Source: Minisyncoccota bacterium (lineage in GTDB: Bacteria > Patescibacteriota > Minisyncoccia > Moranbacterales > UBA2206). Taken from it: DNA of 64,000 bases. The stretch is taken from the NCBI GenBank assembly GCA_031291955.1, contig JARLIA010000015.1:54204-118203 (forward strand), in the 5' to 3' direction. A program made the translations under genes and the position numbers. The notes below the pieces were generated by a model that saw nothing but the letters and a program-made list of their open reading frames with translations, did no database searches and was not told where the DNA came from. Below, piece after piece: positions 24,688 through 53,686 of the stretch (positions within the stretch are counted from its first letter, which is position 1; each line of letters opens with the position of its first letter).

Positions 24688-26112
24688 TGTAAAGAGGAAA
24701 TAGAAATGTCCGCTTTTGCGGGAAATAGAAATGTCCGGTTTGGACATTTTTGTTAGTTGTTAGCGTATTGGTATTTTCTCCATGGATGGTTGGCGGCTGG
24801 CCTGGATGGCACGGTTTTCACCAAAACCCATGGAACATCTTTTTCGGATATCTTTTTGGGTCCGGCTGGAAGTTGTTTGTAATTCAGATATTTCCCTCTT
24901 AATTTAAAATTGATTGTGCCATCGAACCTTTCTTCAACCGTAACAACTTCTTTTCTGAACATAGCCACCGACTGAGTCTCTTCCAGTTGGTACCAGATAT
25001 TTTTGTAGCTCAGGGTGTAGTCACTTCTGATGGTGCGCTCGTAATGTCTGGAAAATATTGAGGGGAATTGGTCTTTTTCCGATTGGGCCAGTTTTTTGTG
25101 CAGGTTGGCATCTGATCTGGGAATGACACCGAACTTGGCATTGAATTTGGGAATGAATGTTTTCTCTAAAAATTCATTGGCTTTGGCTACTGTGGAAATT
25201 TTGTTCAGGCGCAATTCTTTAATGAGTCTATCCTGTAGTGTTTTGAAAAGTCTCTCCACTCGGCCTTTGGCTTGTGAGCTGTGCGCGTTGATAACTCCTA
25301 CATTCAATTGAGTCATAGCTCTTTGAAATTGCGTAAGGGTGTCCGGATTCTCCTTGGCCAGCTTGTGGTTCATGGAATAGGTCGAAAACTTGTCCACGTA
25401 GATTTCATGGGGTTTAACGCTCTTTTCAAAGTATTCCTGCCAGAAATTAAAGGTTGGTTCTACGCCCTCATGCTCATCAAATTTTATGTGGGTAATCTTA
25501 CTGGTGGCGTCATCGATCGCGGCCAGCAGGCAGCATTTTTGACCCCTGTCCTCAAACCAGTATTCATAGGAACCGTCATATTGTTCCAACTCTCCAAAGG
25601 CGGATCGCCTTTGTCGCCAAGCGCGGTATTCCTGTTTCTTTTTTCTTCTTGGTTTCCATAATTCTTCCGCAATCATAATGACGCGGATTGTTTTGGCATC
25701 TCTTTTAATCCGGTGAACTTCATCCAGTTTTTCAGCTGCGAATGTCGGCCCGAAATCCGGATAATGTTCGTGCAGCAGTTTTTTGATTTTTTCAGTTTCT
25801 TTTTCCGGCAACTTTCTTTTGCTGGGCTTGCCTCTGCCGGCATGAATCAATCCTTGTAGTCCATTTTTGGCGACTTTCTTTTTTAATCGGCGGATGTGCC
25901 TGTCTGTCAGGTTGAGCATCTCAGCTGCTTCGATTCCTTTGATTTCTTTTTTAATGGCTTTTTGGATGATGTCATAGCGGCTAGCTTCTTTTTGGCTCAT
26001 GATAATGTGCTTGTCCATTGAGTTGATATTAGTTGATTGAACTAATATCTTAACTGGTTAGGACGGACATTTCTACTTCCCGCCACTAGGACATTATCAT
26101 TTCCGTGTAACA
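24688..26112 (-). mobile_element. Insertion sequence of the ISNCY family (IS1202 group), 1425 bp, with about 50-bp imperfect terminal inverted repeats.
   Basis: Left end (from 24688) is tgtaaagaggaaatagaaatgtccgcttttgcgggaaatagaaatgtccgg. Reverse complement of the right end (to 26112) is tgttacacggaaatgataatgtcctagtggcgggaagtagaaatgtccgtcc. The element is flanked by an identical 17-bp direct repeat agactggccagaatttc (24671-24687 and 26113-26129). It carries a single transposase ORF. Confidence 0.85.
24753..26018 (-). CDS. ISNCY-family transposase (HTH plus DDE integrase core).
   Basis: The N-terminus MSQKEASRYDIIQKAIKKEIKGIEAAEMLNLTDRHIRRLKKKVAKNGLQGLIHAGRGKP is characteristic of IS1202/ISNCY transposases. 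The C-terminal part has DDE-type integrase-core features. Confidence 0.8.
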   Translation of the reverse strand: MDKHIIMSQKEASRYDIIQKAIKKEIKGIEAAEMLNLTDRHIRRLKKKVAKNGLQGLIHAGRGKPSKRKLPEKETEKIKKLLHEHYPDFGPTFAAEKLDEVHRIKRDAKTIRVIMIAEELWKPRRKKKQEYRAWRQRRSAFGELEQYDGSYEYWFEDRGQKCCLLAAIDDATSKITHIKFDEHEGVEPTFNFWQEYFEKSVKPHEIYVDKFSTYSMNHKLAKENPDTLTQFQRAMTQLNVGVINAHSSQAKGRVERLFKTLQDRLIKELRLNKISTVAKANEFLEKTFIPKFNAKFGVIPRSDANLHKKLAQSEKDQFPSIFSRHYERTIRSDYTLSYKNIWYQLEETQSVAMFRKEVVTVEERFDGTINFKLRGKYLNYKQLPAGPKKISEKDVPWVLVKTVPSRPAANHPWRKYQYANN

Positions 26113-35574: not shown

Positions 35575-37200
35575 ATGAAAACGATAAGAAAAATTTGGAG
35601 AAACATAAAAATCCAACCTGATACTTGGCTTTTCTGTGGTTTTTTATTAACTTTTACCTTAAGTGTCCGGAAAGTGTTTTTTTACTTTCCAAACCAAGGA
35701 ACTTTCAATGAATACACAGGCATATATTTATATACCTCGGATATCTTCCTATTTCTAGCTATTTTTAGCTACTTTACTATATTATGCAACAACAAAGAAT
35801 TTATGTCAATGTATAAGCTGTGGATAACTAAACTTATTCACAATTTATCCCTTCTAATTCCGCTTTTTATAGTTATCCTATCTTTCCTTTCAATTCTTTG
35901 GTCTCAAAACAAATCGATCGCCGAATATCAATCCATTAAGCTATTCGAATTTTATTTGCTTTATTTATACACATCTTTAAGGGTTATTCCATATTTTTTA
36001 TCTCGTAATTCAAAATTGTTCCACGTGGAACAATTTATAACTTTGATTGTCGGAATAGGTTTTATTCAAAGTATTATTGGGGTAGCCCAATTTTCCCTGC
36101 AGCATTCAATAGGATTGATTTGGCTCAAAGAAAGCATCATTTCACCCAGCATTCCAGGCGTGGCCAAAATAATCTTAGATAATCATAAAATCATCCGGGC
36201 CTATGGGTTAATGCCACACCCCAACATTCTAGGTGGGTTTCTTAGCCTTTGTATTATTTTACTTTTATATCTCACCAGAATATTCCACGGCCAAAACCAA
36301 GAACCACACAACAACACTCAAATTGTTCCACGTGGAACAATCAGTGCAAGTACCAGCAAGCCCCAAAAAAAGACTGACTATCCCTACATTTTATTAAAAA
36401 AGTCCCTCTTTAAAAATAAATGGCTTATTTACTGCATTTTTTTAGTACTTGCCCTAGGTCTATTACTCACTCTTTCTAAGTCAGCAATTCTGGGATTATT
36501 CTTAGCGCTTGTATATATCTTTATAATTGTTCCACGTGGAACAAATGCGACACTTGGGAATCAGCTGCTAATAAATTTCAAGCGACAAATATACAGCCTC
36601 AAAGAAATGTTCCACGTGGAACATTCGCGAATTTTCATAATTTCACTGGCAATTATCATTATCTCATCATTTCTAATTCTAAAACCCAGCCTGCATTCGA
36701 TATTTATACAATCGCTTGAAGAACGGGGAATTTATCTCGATATTTCATATCATGCGATCATAGCCAATCCTCTTATTGGAATTGGCGCTGGTCAATTCGT
36801 CTGGAAAATGCAGGATTTTTCCAGCATGATTCTATCATCCTGGCAATATCAGCCAGTTCACAATGTATTTCTTCTTATTTGGAGTGAATTGGGAATTGTT
36901 GGATTGGGATTATTTACTTGGTTAATTTGGACATTGTTTTATTCTTCAGAGTCACCAATTGTTCCACGTGGAACAATTGGTGAAAAAACAATTGCTACAA
37001 AAGAAAATCTAGCAGGGGATAGCATTGCTATATTAGATAATACTTTTCATGTTTTGTCAACAGAATCAATCCTGCCTTATTTTAAAGCAATCTTCCTTAG
37101 TTTTTTATTCATCATGCTTTTTGACCACTATTTTTGGGATATCCAGCAGGGAAGCTTGATGCTCTGGATGGTTATGGGAGTCATCGCTGGAATAGAATAA
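35575..37200 (+). CDS. O-antigen ligase (Wzy_C) family polytopic membrane protein carrying five in-frame palindromic repeat insertions.
   Basis: At least 10 TM helices and the Wzy_C signature IRAYGLMPHPNILGGFL. The encoded IVPRGT (three times) and FHVEQ/FHVEH (twice) peptide segments coincide exactly with the DNA palindromes. Confidence 0.65.
   Translation: MKTIRKIWRNIKIQPDTWLFCGFLLTFTLSVRKVFFYFPNQGTFNEYTGIYLYTSDIFLFLAIFSYFTILCNNKEFMSMYKLWITKLIHNLSLLIPLFIVILSFLSILWSQNKSIAEYQSIKLFEFYLLYLYTSLRVIPYFLSRNSKLFHVEQFITLIVGIGFIQSIIGVAQFSLQHSIGLIWLKESIISPSIPGVAKIILDNHKIIRAYGLMPHPNILGGFLSLCIILLLYLTRIFHGQNQEPHNNTQIVPRGTISASTSKPQKKTDYPYILLKKSLFKNKWLIYCIFLVLALGLLLTLSKSAILGLFLALVYIFIIVPRGTNATLGNQLLINFKRQIYSLKEMFHVEHSRIFIISLAIIIISSFLILKPSLHSIFIQSLEERGIYLDISYHAIIANPLIGIGAGQFVWKMQDFSSMILSSWQYQPVHNVFLLIWSELGIVGLGLFTWLIWTLFYSSESPIVPRGTIGEKTIATKENLAGDSIAILDNTFHVLSTESILPYFKAIFLSFLFIMLFDHYFWDIQQGSLMLWMVMGVIAGIE
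36013..36036. repeat. Copy 1 of the TTGTTCCACGTGGAACAA palindrome, extended to 24 bp as aaattgttccacgtggaacaattt. Encodes KLFHVEQF.
   Basis: Read directly from the sequence: a perfect self-reverse-complement. Confidence 0.9.
36322..36341. repeat. Copy 2 of the palindrome (attgttccacgtggaacaat). Encodes QIVPRGTI in a different codon phase.
   Basis: Perfect palindrome; core 18-mer at 36323-36340. Confidence 0.9.
36527..36544. repeat. Copy 3 of the palindrome (ttgttccacgtggaacaa). Encodes IVPRGT.
   Basis: Perfect 18-bp palindrome. Confidence 0.9.
36606..36625. repeat. Copy 4, the variant aATGTTCCACGTGGAACATt, 62 bp downstream of copy 3. Encodes EMFHVEHS.
   Basis: Perfect 20-bp palindrome whose core differs from the other copies at the outer two positions only. 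Confidence 0.9.
36952..36983. repeat. Copy 5, extended to a 32-bp perfect palindrome (tcaccaattgttccacgtggaacaattggtga). Encodes SPIVPRGTIGE.
   Basis: Perfect palindrome; core 18-mer at 36959-36976. Confidence 0.9.
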
Positions 37201-37269: not shown

Positions 37270-39726
37270 TTATAAGACAGTGCTGGCCGAAACCTTATCA
37301 CCTGGCTGCGGGCGCATCACCCGAACACCTTGAGTGGCGCGACCAAGGGATGAAACACTGGAAAGGGGAATGCGAATAATCTGACCGCGCTCGGAGGTAA
37401 GGATGAGATCTGCGTCAAGAGCATCAACATTAATGATATCCGCACCAATCATTTTTCCGGTCTTAGTCGTGATTACGGCCGTTTTAATGCCGGAACCGCC
37501 GCGCTTTTGAATTTTGTAGGCCTTAAGATCCGTTCGCTTGCCGTAACCATTTTCCGTAATGACTAAGATTTGATTGCCTTTTTGATTCTTAAGGACGACA
37601 TCCATGCCGACCACTTGATCGTCCTTTCTGAGTTTGATTCCGCGCACTCCGGCCGCCGAGCGCCCCATCGGACGCACATCCGTCTCACGAAAGCGGATCG
37701 CTTGTCCACCCCAAGTGGCAATGGCTACTTCATCTGAACCGGTCGTAGCATCAACCCAGCGAAGCGCATCACCTTTTTCCAAATTGATAGCAATGAGGCC
37801 AGAACGACGGACATTTTCAAATTCATCTAGCGAAGTTTTTTTAACTGTTCCCATTTGGGTCGCCATAAAAAGATACTTGTAATTATCATCTTTGCCAAAA
37901 GCAATGATGGCGGTCACAGTCTCGTCTTGAGAGAGCGACAAGAAATTGACAACAGATTGCCCCTTAGCAATTCGTGACGATTCCGGAATCTCATAAGCCT
38001 TGGTTTGGAAAACTTTGCCCGTGTTGGTGAAAAAGAGAAGATTGTCATGAGCCATCACGCCCAAAACCTTTTGAATTTCGTCACCTTCTTTGGTAGTGGC
38101 ACCCATCACGCCCTTTCCGCCGCGTTTCTGAACGCGATAAACGGACGGGTTCATCCTTTTAATATAGCCTCCCTTGGAAATAGTGATAATGGCTTCTTCA
38201 TTGGGAATCAAGTCTTCCTGCTTAAATTCGGTAACACCGGATTTAATAATCTTGGTCTTCCGTTCGTCGCCATATTTTTCTTTGACCTTGCTGAGTTCAT
38301 CCTTCACAATCCCAAAAATTTTTGTTTCGCTTTTGAGAATGGCTTCCAATTCCGCAATGAGCCGGAGTTTTTCCTCAAGTTCGTCCTCGATCTTCTTTCT
38401 TTCAAGGCCGGCCAGAGTTTGCAGGCGCATTTCCAAAATAGCGGTCGTTTGCCGATCGGAAAGCTTGAATTTTTTCATCAAATTTTCGTGGGCGATTTCT
38501 TTGGTGGCGGATTTTTTGATCGTTTCAATGACCGCATCAATATTATCCAGGGCAATTTTGAGTCCTTCCAAGATATGCGCCCGATCCTTGGCTTTTTGCA
38601 AGTCAAATTTGGTGCGCCGCACGACCACAATTTTTCGGTGTTTCACATATTCCTCCAAAATGCTTTTCAAATTGAGGACTTGCGGCTCGATGCCATCAAC
38701 CAAGGCCAACATATTCACGCCGAAATTCTTTTGAAGGTCAGTCATGGAATAGAGCTTGTTGAGGACTTTCTGGGGATAAGCGTCCTTTTTTAGATCTACC
38801 ACAATCCGCACTCCGTCTTTATCCGACTCGTCGCGCAAGTCTCTGATGCCGACAATTTTTCCTTCTCGCACCAGATCGGCAAGCTTTTCGATAAGCGTCG
38901 CCTTATTGGTGGCATAAGTCATTTCTGTAACAATGATTTGGAAAGCGCCCGCCTTGGTTTCCACAATTTCGGCCTTTCCGCGGGTCAAAATCTTGCCACG
39001 ACCAGTACGATAGGCTTCTAAAATGTCTTTTTTATTATAAATAATTCCTCCAGTTGGAAAATCCGGGCCCTTAATGAACTCAGCCAGATCTTCCACACTG
39101 GCCTCCGGGTTATCGATCAAGTGATTGATGCCGTCCACCAGCTCGCTCAGATTGTGAGGCGGGATGTTAGTGGCCATGCCGACCGCGATGCCCATTGTTC
39201 CATTAAGAAGCAATTGAGGAAGACCAGCCGGCAAAACAGTCGGTTCTTTGTGGGCTCCGTCAAAATTAGGCACGAAATCAACCGTGTCTTTTTCGATATC
39301 AAAAAGCATTTCTTCAGCGATCGTCGAGAGTTTAGCTTCTGTATAACGATAAGCTGCCGCAGAGTCGCCGTCCATGGAGCCGAAATTTCCTTGACCCTTA
39401 ACCAAGGGATAGCGCAAAGAAAAATCTTGAGCCATTCTCACCATAGACTCGTAAACAGCACTATCTCCGTGCGGGTGATATTTTCCCAAAACTTCTCCAA
39501 CCACCGTGGCTGATTTCCGGAATTTGGCATTAGCGCGGAGACCGGTCGACCACATGGAATAGAGGATGCGGCGATGAACCGGCTTCATGCCATCCCGAAC
39601 GTCCGGAAGGGCGCGCGCCACAATGACACTCATCGCATAATCAAGATAGGACTGGGAGATTTCGGCGGTTATTTCTTTGTCTTTGATGTTCTTATTATGA
39701 TTGTCGAACAAATTTTCTTTCGGCAT
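37270..39726 (-). CDS. gyrA: DNA gyrase subunit A.
   Basis: 818 aa. Active-site region AAMRYTE-like ([11 protein letters not shown]), the GyrA box and C-terminal beta-pinwheel repeats. Confidence 0.95.
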
Positions 39727-41242: not shown

Positions 41243-41266
41243 CCCTTTCGGAGGGTTTTTTGTTTT
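41243..41266 (+). terminator. Intrinsic-terminator-like hairpin plus T-run 33 bp upstream of the rpsA start codon. It could be an attenuator or the end of a small RNA.
   Basis: ccctttcggaggg followed by ttttttgtttt. Confidence 0.5.
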
Positions 41267-52263: not shown

Positions 52264-52869
52264 ATGAAATTCTTCGAATTTGAGAAAAAAATGCTTAAAT
52301 ATCCGATTTTTACCTCAAAAGAAGTCCGAAATATTTTTTTTAATGAACCCGCCATTCTCGTTCAAATTGCTTTTTGGTCCAAAAAAGGTTACCTTAAAAA
52401 AATCAAAAAAGGACTCTATGCCATGGCCAACACTCAAAATAATATCAACCCGATGGAGCTGGCGGAGAAAATTTACGCGCCGTCTTATTTGAGTTTGGAA
52501 TTCATGTTGCATCATTATGGAATAATTCCGGATGTTCCAGGCACTTTCACCTCGGTAACCTCTCGAAAAACCATGTTTTACAAAACAGATTTCGGAAATT
52601 TTTCTTATCAAAAAATCAAACCGGAATTTTTTTTCGGCTACATCAGACAAGACAACGCCGGCATGGCCGCGCCGGAAAAAGCTCTTTTTGATTATCTTTA
52701 TCTAAATAAAAAAAAATTTGAGGCTGAAGAAAATTTTTGGCGGGAAATGAGAATCGATGAAGATTTTAAATTTGACCGAAAAAAAATCGAGGCGTACAAG
52801 AAAATTTTTAATGATAAAAAAATAAATAATTTAATCGATAGCCTTTTGGCTTATCAAAAAAATGCTTGA
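52264..52869 (+). CDS. abiEi: AbiEi-family antitoxin (type IV toxin-antitoxin / abortive infection), winged-helix transcriptional regulator.
   Basis: 201 aa. N-terminal wHTH-like region and an 8-bp overlap with the downstream DUF1814 nucleotidyltransferase gene, the typical abiEi-abiEii organisation. Confidence 0.65.
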   Translation: MKFFEFEKKMLKYPIFTSKEVRNIFFNEPAILVQIAFWSKKGYLKKIKKGLYAMANTQNNINPMELAEKIYAPSYLSLEFMLHHYGIIPDVPGTFTSVTSRKTMFYKTDFGNFSYQKIKPEFFFGYIRQDNAGMAAPEKALFDYLYLNKKKFEAEENFWREMRIDEDFKFDRKKIEAYKKIFNDKKINNLIDSLLAYQKNA

Positions 52870-53686
52870 TAAAAATTTTTTGGATGATTACGTCAAAAAA
52901 AATGCCATTCCTCCCAATACGCGCCGCTATCTGGCGGAATATTTGCAGTCGGAAATCCTGTCCATTCTTTATGATTCGAAATACGGCCGGCACCTGTCTT
53001 TTTTGGGCGGCACCAGCCTTCGTTTTGTTTATAAAATAGAACGTTTTTCCGAAGACTTGGATTTTGATCTGGTTAAGACCGGCCTTGATTATGCGAAGTT
53101 GGCCAAATATTTGGAAAAACAATTGAACGAACGGGGATTTCTGGCGGAAACACGCGTGAAAAAAACGGAAAATATTTTTATTATCTTCGTAAAATTTTCC
53201 GAGATCATGAAACAGATGGGAGTTTCCGAGTTTGCCAATCAAAAAATAAAAATTAAATTCGAAGTCGACCCGTCTCCCTATAAAAGTCTTGAGTATGAAA
53301 CAAAATTAGTTTCGGCCTACGGAAAAACTTTTAATGTTATCATCAACACTTTGCCGACGCTTTTCGCCCAGAAAATTTTGGCTTTGAAATTGCGTCCCTA
53401 CCAAAAAGGCCGCGATTTCTATGATCTGGTCTGGTTTTTGGCGCAAAAAAACGTCGAGCCGAATTACGCGATCTTGAAAGAAAAAGGAATCAAAGTGAAA
53501 AACCGGGAAGAGTTGATCTTGGAACTTGAAAAAATCATTTCTAAACTTGACCTGAAGCTGGCCGCCGCGGACGTGCGCCGATTTCTTTTCTATCCCGATC
53601 AAGCTCGATGGATTTTGGATCTCCCAAAATATTTGGACGGGTTTTCAAAAGAGTCAGGGCTTACGCGTTTGCCTCAAAAATACTGA
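52862..53686 (+). CDS. abiEii: AbiEii/AbiGii-family nucleotidyltransferase toxin (DUF1814).
   Basis: RHLSFLGGTSLRFVY...RFSEDLDFD is the AbiEii nucleotidyltransferase motif. 274 aa. Confidence 0.72.
   Translation: MLDKNFLDDYVKKNAIPPNTRRYLAEYLQSEILSILYDSKYGRHLSFLGGTSLRFVYKIERFSEDLDFDLVKTGLDYAKLAKYLEKQLNERGFLAETRVKKTENIFIIFVKFSEIMKQMGVSEFANQKIKIKFEVDPSPYKSLEYETKLVSAYGKTFNVIINTLPTLFAQKILALKLRPYQKGRDFYDLVWFLAQKNVEPNYAILKEKGIKVKNREELILELEKIISKLDLKLAAADVRRFLFYPDQARWILDLPKYLDGFSKESGLTRLPQKY

Follow-up and report, generated by a model that had tools for sequence, protein, structure and literature searches.

Candidate chromosomal parS sites embedded in-frame in an O-antigen-ligase-like gene of Moranbacteria

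Why would one membrane-protein gene carry the same perfect palindrome five times? The question is raised by a 64-kb stretch of a Minisyncoccota bacterium (contig JARLIA010000015.1; "the window" below always means the whole of this stretch), in which five palindromes lie within 1 kb of each other inside a single open reading frame (ORF; 35575..37200, + strand). This ORF encodes a 541-residue O-antigen-ligase-like polytopic membrane protein, assigned to the Wzy_C/WaaL fold with Pfam, AlphaFold2 and Foldseek. Our answer is that the five palindromes are very probably chromosomal parS sites, arranged as an array embedded in-frame in one conserved WaaL/Wzy_C-like gene of Moranbacteria and related Parcubacteria.

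A scan of the window located TTGTTCCACGTGGAACAA at 36016, 36323, 36527 and 36959 and the variant ATGTTCCACGTGGAACAT at 36607. The chance expectation for the palindrome was 0.01 copies, and five matches were reached in none of 100 shuffles. All five have a perfect 16-mer core, TGTTCCACGTGGAACA (starts at 36017, 36324, 36528, 36608 and 36960), and the full palindromes measure 24, 20, 18, 20 and 32 bp, in this order. When up to three mismatches were allowed, no further credible copy of TGTTCCACGTGGAACA appeared in the window, the 62 kb outside the gene holding none, and the CACGTG hexamer alone was not enriched outside the host gene. The first candidate site (parS-1, 36017..36032, palindrome 36013-36036) carries TGTTCCACGTGGAACA read as LFHVEQ (amino acids 148-153), in the loop that leads into the helix beginning at residue 151. 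The second (parS-2, 36324..36339, palindrome 36322-36341) is read as IVPRGT at residues 250-255, in the disordered loop 242-269, and the third (parS-3, 36528..36543, palindrome 36527-36544) gives IVPRGT at residues 318-323, at the end of helix 302-321. The fourth (parS-4, 36608..36623, palindrome 36606-36625 with flanks A..T) encodes MFHVEH at residues 345-350, between helices 325-345 and 348-369, and the fifth (parS-5, 36960..36975) sits in the 32-bp palindrome TCACCAATTGTTCCACGTGGAACAATTGGTGA (36952-36983) and encodes IVPRGT at residues 462-467, in the disordered loop 456-495. Two codon phases are used in the window, one by copies 1 and 4 (LFHVEQ/MFHVEH) and the other by copies 2, 3 and 5 (IVPRGT); the palindrome has no stop codon in any frame, and 62 nt separate copies 3 and 4. 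In all these respects, that is, positions, cores, the 32-bp extension, the two phases, the freedom from stops and the 62-bp gap, the rescan bore out the preliminary description of this stretch.

What, then, is the palindrome? In Pseudomonas aeruginosa and P. putida the published parS is TGTTCCACGTGGAACA, and both the Bacillus subtilis parS (TGTTCCACGTGAAACA) and the Myxococcus xanthus consensus (TGTTCCACGTGGAACG) are one base away from it. All five window sites match the parS consensus tGTTNCACGTGNAACa, a 16-bp inverted repeat. In 619 related sites 14 core bases are invariant, position 5 varies between C and T, and position 12 between G and A only; positions 5 and 12 are the known degenerate positions of parS. 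We also examined 120 unrelated contigs from public metagenomes, many only 1-5 kb long, each holding two exact 16-mers 18-45 nt apart. ParA and/or ParB were encoded on 51 of the 120, which validated our Spo0J and Soj queries and indicated that the 16-mer neighbours partition genes in nature.

The preliminary description had listed a site for a DNA-binding protein among its alternatives, and this is now the best reading. The protein need not be ParB: an envelope-gene regulator, or a restriction-modification or defence protein acting on a CACGTG-centred palindrome, would fit both the failure to find ParB near the sites and their confinement to one gene, as for a gene-specific operator. We consider this quite improbable, because convergence on a 16/16 match to parS that varies only at its two degenerate positions is unlikely and because pairs of the 16-mer occur with parAB on so many of the unrelated contigs. 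Moreover, as many as 18 operators inside a gene, in every frame, would be unusual for gene regulation, CACGTG alone is unremarkable elsewhere, and ParB is widespread in the candidate phyla radiation (CPR).

Is the array a peculiarity of this one contig? A word-index search returned as its 120 best homologues proteins of metagenome-assembled genomes (MAGs) labelled Moranbacteria, Pacebacteria, Parcubacteria or Patescibacteria. Translations of the palindrome were present in 118 of them (VPRGT 243 times, FHVE 189 times and CSTWN 127 times), and VSRET and FHVK, the translations of the T/A variant, were also found. Because a word-index search could favour motif-bearing proteins, we fetched 80 species-level GTDB loci by peptide patterns that are independent of parS (YGL[FM]PHPN, FDHY[LFI]WDI, FNEY...). 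Every one of the 80 had at least one in-gene site, the range being 1-18 per gene. In these loci GTTNCACGTGNAAC occurred 612 times in the orthologous gene (144 kb in total) against twice in the 1.19 Mb of flanks; these two copies belong to one locus and lie <250 bp past the end of the match. The T...A that completes the 16-mer was present at 611 of the 614 sites. With HMMER and no word index, a search through 1.84 billion representatives gave 289 family clusters at E<=1e-30, and among its best 150 matches 111 of 114 new representatives contained parS peptides, up to 18 per protein. The motif-independent GTDB scan and the HMMER search thus gave the same answer, which ruled out an inflation of the motif frequency by the word index. 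Congruently, in four loci fetched by exact-protein look-up (L001-L004) all the sites were in the gene (5/5, 12/12, 12/12 and 7/7). A homologue search started from a distant member (L177) returned the same Moranbacteria family. Few, clustered copies in place of dispersal, a trait of parS, were seen over the window and the 80 species loci with their flanks. Since the pattern recurs in independent assemblies, a local assembly artefact, one of the options left by the preliminary description, is not suggested. One MAG, UBA2206, has two contigs (L009 and L027), each with a Wzy_C gene of six parS sites, for which duplication, strain heterogeneity or a binning artefact are possible explanations.

This confinement bears on the headline of the preliminary description, according to which the palindromes are a selfish element, similar to the Rickettsia palindromic elements (RPEs), that proliferates in-frame in coding sequence; we take this reading to include mini-elements that resemble miniature inverted-repeat transposable elements. 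Such an element would explain why the copy number ranges from 1 to 18 between species and why, in relatives (loci L077, L071 and L057), cassettes of 59-114 nt with 2-3 palindromes are repeated 3-6 times in-frame in different loops, at 83-98% identity. However, an element of this kind should spread, and we found it nowhere in the remaining 62 kb of the window, while of 614 copies only 2 fell beyond the match region in the 1.19 Mb of flanks; the absence of the 18-mer elsewhere is what the preliminary description itself had named as speaking against its idea. Furthermore, the conserved unit is only ~22 bp across the 619 copies, its sequence, including the choice of variable positions, is that of the parS consensus, many sites stand at the same column and in the same frame in dozens of homologues, and the window gene, with single sites only, has no repeat of at least 40 nt. 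Taken together, the restriction to one gene, the ~22-bp unit and the identity with parS led us to abandon the selfish element, which we regard as extremely improbable. What survives of the proposed proliferation is that cassettes have been copied in-frame within the gene in relatives; spread beyond the gene was not seen in the window or the flanks.

The cassettes are genome-specific duplications, and they probably reflect intragenic duplication of the centromere array via recombination between identical sites. Spacings of 37, 41 and 49 bp between sites are the commonest in relatives. A related view makes recombination the purpose: as hot spots of recombination or phase variation, the palindromes would serve to vary the loops of an enzyme that acts on surface polysaccharides. 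The host gene is indeed envelope-related, and the identical 16-22-bp repeats appear to mediate duplication and turnover of cassettes within it, but diversification has no need of an exact sequence that is invariant across 80 species, simple-sequence tracts are absent, and the loops that vary are predicted to be cytoplasmic, not surface-exposed. We therefore hold hot spots of this sort to be highly improbable and take the recombination as a side effect of many identical parS sites.

How old are the sites? In the alignment of the 120 homologues they accumulate at a few hot spots, after window residues ~82-91, 138-150, 237-267, 317-351, 390 and 455-463, which are common to many homologues in the same frame. 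The columns of the five window sites are shared, again in the same frame, by 19, 47, 41, 53 and 44 homologues, and the window sites are therefore old shared sites and not lineage-specific insertions. The earlier view that each copy adds an insert to the protein is only partly right: the copies stand in loops or at helix ends but are no insertions peculiar to this genome. One hot spot is empty in the window: at the alignment column of reference position 390, where 75 of the 120 homologues keep the parS-type peptide YLNV[PS]R[GE]T, the window has YLDISYHAI (36733..36759), a decayed copy from which parS is absent. This position is within the conserved catalytic-side region and adjoins the invariant R384 and the nearly invariant Y387. 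The T/A (canonical) variant of parS is common at it in homologues.

Is it the DNA or its product that is conserved? The 619 sites use all three frames (270, 197 and 152 sites), and 543 of 560 VPRGT/FHVE/CSTWN peptides (97%) are spelled with the exact parS bases, while gene-typical codon usage would predict exact spelling in ~1% of cases for VPRGT. The 17 exceptions include one-base decays (CATGTG, CACATG) and the permitted T half-site variant. Three frames together with exact spelling argue that the constraint is on DNA and not on protein, and they uphold the earlier statement that the peptides are not conserved protein sequence. The logo of the 619 sites shows A/T-rich flanks (AAW...WTT), and its information falls to background beyond ~22 bp. 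The perfect C/G palindrome TGTTCCACGTGGAACA accounts for 560 of the 619 sites. The canonical half-site ...GTGAAACA gives TGA in one frame, and the C/G variant is the only parS variant without stops; that it can be read in all frames plausibly accounts for its dominance.

A function at the level of RNA, with the palindromes folding as hairpins in the mRNA, or of protein, with VPRGT and FHVEQ as motifs, would draw on the perfection of the palindromes and on the recurrence of the peptides in homologues. We give it almost no credence. Hairpins require pairing, but 14 core bases are entirely invariant and not merely paired, and this invariance without covariation speaks against an RNA function; a protein motif is at odds with one DNA word that yields three different peptides, and with one codon path in 97% of them.

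How can a protein accommodate such sites? The Pfam Wzy_C domain (PF04932) was matched with E=1.8e-13 and 51 bits against a cut-off of 31.7. The AlphaFold2 model of the protein, with ~12 helices, had a mean predicted local distance difference test (pLDDT) of 84.7 and a predicted template modelling (TM) score of 0.87, and its sole significant fold match in the PDB was WaaL (7tpg; Foldseek probability 1.00, TM score 0.60 on the target). R208, H215, R384 and H429 are invariant in the 120 homologues. By its domain, predicted fold and conserved Arg and His residues the host protein is a member of the Wzy_C/WaaL O-antigen-ligase superfamily. In the model the five peptides fall at helix ends or in low-pLDDT loops (143-150, 242-269, 322-347 and 456-495). 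From hydropathy, the positive-inside rule and the topology of WaaL we infer that these site-bearing loops face the cytoplasm. The ORF is intact despite its five sites, which are read through without disruption of the host protein and of its invariant catalytic-type residues; their position, in loops and at the ends of helices on the side predicted to be cytoplasmic, would make them tolerable to the protein. The GC content of the host gene is 34.6%, against 44.7% for the whole window.

Does the gene hold further signals of chromosome maintenance? A perfect DnaA box, TGTGGATAA (the reverse complement of TTATCCACA), lies at 35819..35827 on the - strand and is read as LWIT (residues 82-85), and one-mismatch boxes are found at 35834-35842 and 35965-35973. 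In 81 loci, the bin from +200 to +299 nt of the gene (8.1 kb) contained 26 perfect boxes, a ~67-fold enrichment over the background of 0.048 per kb. In the 80 species the hot spot extends over +200..+400 nt of the gene, with boxes in either orientation and in several frames (LWIT, IHR/K, LST, VDN), and corresponds to the first cytoplasmic loop region (predicted side) of the Wzy_C-like protein; upstream of the host gene no enrichment of DnaA boxes was found. In two loci, L177 (2802-4271) and L200 (10993-12462), a cassette in which a DnaA box is set between two parS sites, ~57 nt after the first and ~53 nt before the second, is present three times in-frame in one Wzy_C gene, and no DnaA boxes were found elsewhere in either locus.

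Outside the gene family, a related lineage places the same elements together in non-coding DNA. On contig Ga0265295_1006645 (L171, 13300-13872) dnaA is followed by an AT-rich DnaA-box region and then by five non-coding parS sites. Their flanks, AAAATGTT...AACAATT, are the same as those of the in-gene sites; the array includes a ~185-bp tandem duplication, and the contig ends within it. The DnaA of L171 is 59% identical to that of L015, one of the Wzy_C loci, which indicates a related lineage. In an unrelated genome of very low GC (contig OIZT01000012.1, L163, 2419-3199, GC 27%) two ORFs are separated by 1.3 kb of non-coding DNA that contains seven parS sites.

What would the array do? If the sites are parS, ParB dimers would nucleate at each 16-mer, close as clamps in a manner dependent on cytidine triphosphate and spread over the surrounding DNA, and several close sites would raise the loading rate of ParB. 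The resulting complex would organise or segregate the chromosome, most likely by loading SMC, which we propose because ParA is depleted in the CPR. As for the choice of gene, the simplest view is that a compact genome may have a safe place for such sites in a polytopic protein that is expressed weakly and whose cytoplasmic loops are tolerant. A more ambitious idea makes the Wzy_C gene a dedicated platform for chromosome maintenance in a ParA-poor lineage, where coupled transcription, translation and insertion of the polytopic protein would tether the ParB-bound centromere to the membrane, envelope synthesis would be coupled to the state of replication and segregation, or there would be cross-talk with DnaA. 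The joint embedding and duplication of parS and DnaA boxes in L177 and L200 can be cited for it, but we consider a dedicated platform unlikely.

Several observations weigh against the parS assignment. Neither parA nor parB was found in the 64-kb window, either with Pfam and NCBIfam over its ~50 ORFs or by tblastn with Spo0J and Soj, and in 84 related loci tblastn detected neither ParA nor ParB up to 10 kb on either side of the gene. Since the same queries recovered ParA/ParB in the control contigs, the negative is real for those +-10 kb. A look-up of the genes at the ends of the window matched only short Logan contigs, none with ParB. The window also has no dnaA, no oriC-type cluster of DnaA boxes and no turning point in its GC skew, and dnaA adjoins the gene in only one of the 84 loci (L015, 1.7 kb upstream). 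Binding of ParB to the 16-mers is proposed from sequence identity, and the presence of ParB in this lineage, which we hold to be very likely, is drawn from CPR-wide statistics. An oriC within the window was considered and rejected: the host gene offers one perfect and two one-mismatch boxes, the strand-switch region at 41.1 kb a single box, and the skew is unconvincing. The skew suggests that the whole window belongs to one replichore.

The CPR-wide statistics are those of Meheust et al. (2019; PMC6744442, Suppl. Data 1). ParB (PF02195, K03497) is equally distributed, with 1717 CPR genomes and 947 non-CPR bacteria, as is GyrB (1985 and 1057); near-universal families reach ~1985-2000 CPR genomes, and ParB is comparable to them. 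ParA (K03496; 617 CPR against 1160 non-CPR) and SMC (1016 against 813) are depleted in the CPR, and a Wzy_C family with 12 transmembrane helices is enriched (1657 against 122). A cognate ParB is therefore very likely to be present in these genomes, and in many of these organisms ParB-parS probably works in the absence of ParA.

Do the sites follow the gene or the locus? Downstream of the host gene lies the convergent gyrA (37270..39726, - strand), in a gene order that is partly conserved: CCA-adding enzyme (-), Wzy_C (+), gyrA (-), a small ORF, a metallo-beta-lactamase-fold gene (-), and then an S1 gene (+), cmk, tilS and ftsH. The CCA-adding enzyme is upstream of the host gene in 53 of 80 loci, and a GyrA match was found downstream in 45 of 80, at a median offset of ~2 kb. 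Where the neighbouring genes differ, the parS sites still stay with the Wzy_C gene.

Between 41020 and 41299 of the window the gene orientation turns from - to +, a divergent junction that is also present in L001-L004. One perfect DnaA box (41219) is present in this region, together with a hairpin and T-run (~41243-41262) that precede the S1-domain gene. Of mobile- or defence-like genes we noticed only two in the window: an AbiEii-type toxin gene (a type IV toxin-antitoxin nucleotidyltransferase; 52862-53686) and a 421-residue ORF with HTH_32, HTH_29 and HTH_28 matches (24753-26018), which we took as transposase-like.

If the sites are parS, a large lineage without cultivated members gains a candidate centromere that is defined by its sequence and that can help to find, in fragmented MAGs, the locus of segregation and perhaps the region of the origin. 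The sites also offer a case of overlapping codes, in which a DNA-binding site would dictate VPRGT, FHVEQ/H and CSTWN in the loops of an enzyme and would select the stop-free variant of parS. For annotation, such motifs and cassettes in O-antigen-ligase-like proteins should be viewed with caution, as they are not protein features. Two questions follow: how ParB loading, DnaA binding and the expression of a membrane protein coexist on 1.6 kb in organisms largely without ParA, and whether, with a Wzy_C family that is enriched in the CPR, parS within Wzy_C genes reaches beyond Moranbacteria.

How much of this is new? Sites of the parS type, their clusters and single sites inside genes are already well known. 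Our literature search found no prior account of parS in CPR, Patescibacteria or Moranbacteria or in O-antigen-ligase genes. Nor did we find a description of an array of up to 18 parS sites that occupies three frames of one partition-unrelated gene, is conserved across a candidate phylum-level lineage, shapes protein loops and is accompanied by DnaA boxes.

How does the locus compare with known systems? With its host family the protein shares the Pfam match, the 7tpg fold, the ~12 helices and the invariant Arg and His residues; it differs from WaaL in a sequence identity of 11%, in loops expanded by parS-encoded peptides and in coming from CPR cells, which are wall-simple. RPEs are ~100-150 bp long and are dispersed over many unrelated genes and intergenic regions. 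The present palindromes resemble them as a DNA-level palindrome that is read in-frame as an extra peptide in a conserved protein and varies in copy number between relatives, but they conserve ~22 bp, occur in one gene only and match a known protein-binding sequence, so that neither the dispersal nor the element length of RPEs is matched. The arrays of L171 (beside dnaA) and L163 are closer, with the same 16-mer, A/T-rich flanks, 5-7 copies at a spacing of tens of bp and DnaA boxes nearby; they are intergenic, whereas the Moranbacteria array is inside an ORF and constrains a protein sequence. Individual parS sites are known from coding DNA, and one B. subtilis site is said, after Lin and Grossman in 1998, to lie inside the coding sequence of spo0J. 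The chromosomal parS arrays of P. aeruginosa, P. putida and M. xanthus (22 sites in the latter) share with the present one an identical or nearly identical 16-bp palindrome, clustered copies and the degenerate positions 5 and 12. In contrast to them, all the sites here (in the window and within +-10 kb in relatives) are in one gene unrelated to partition, up to 18 in ~1.7 kb at a spacing of 37-49 bp, with no adjacent parAB; they are translated in three frames, conserved with the gene in at least 80 species, almost exclusively of the stop-free C/G variant, and embedded alongside DnaA boxes.

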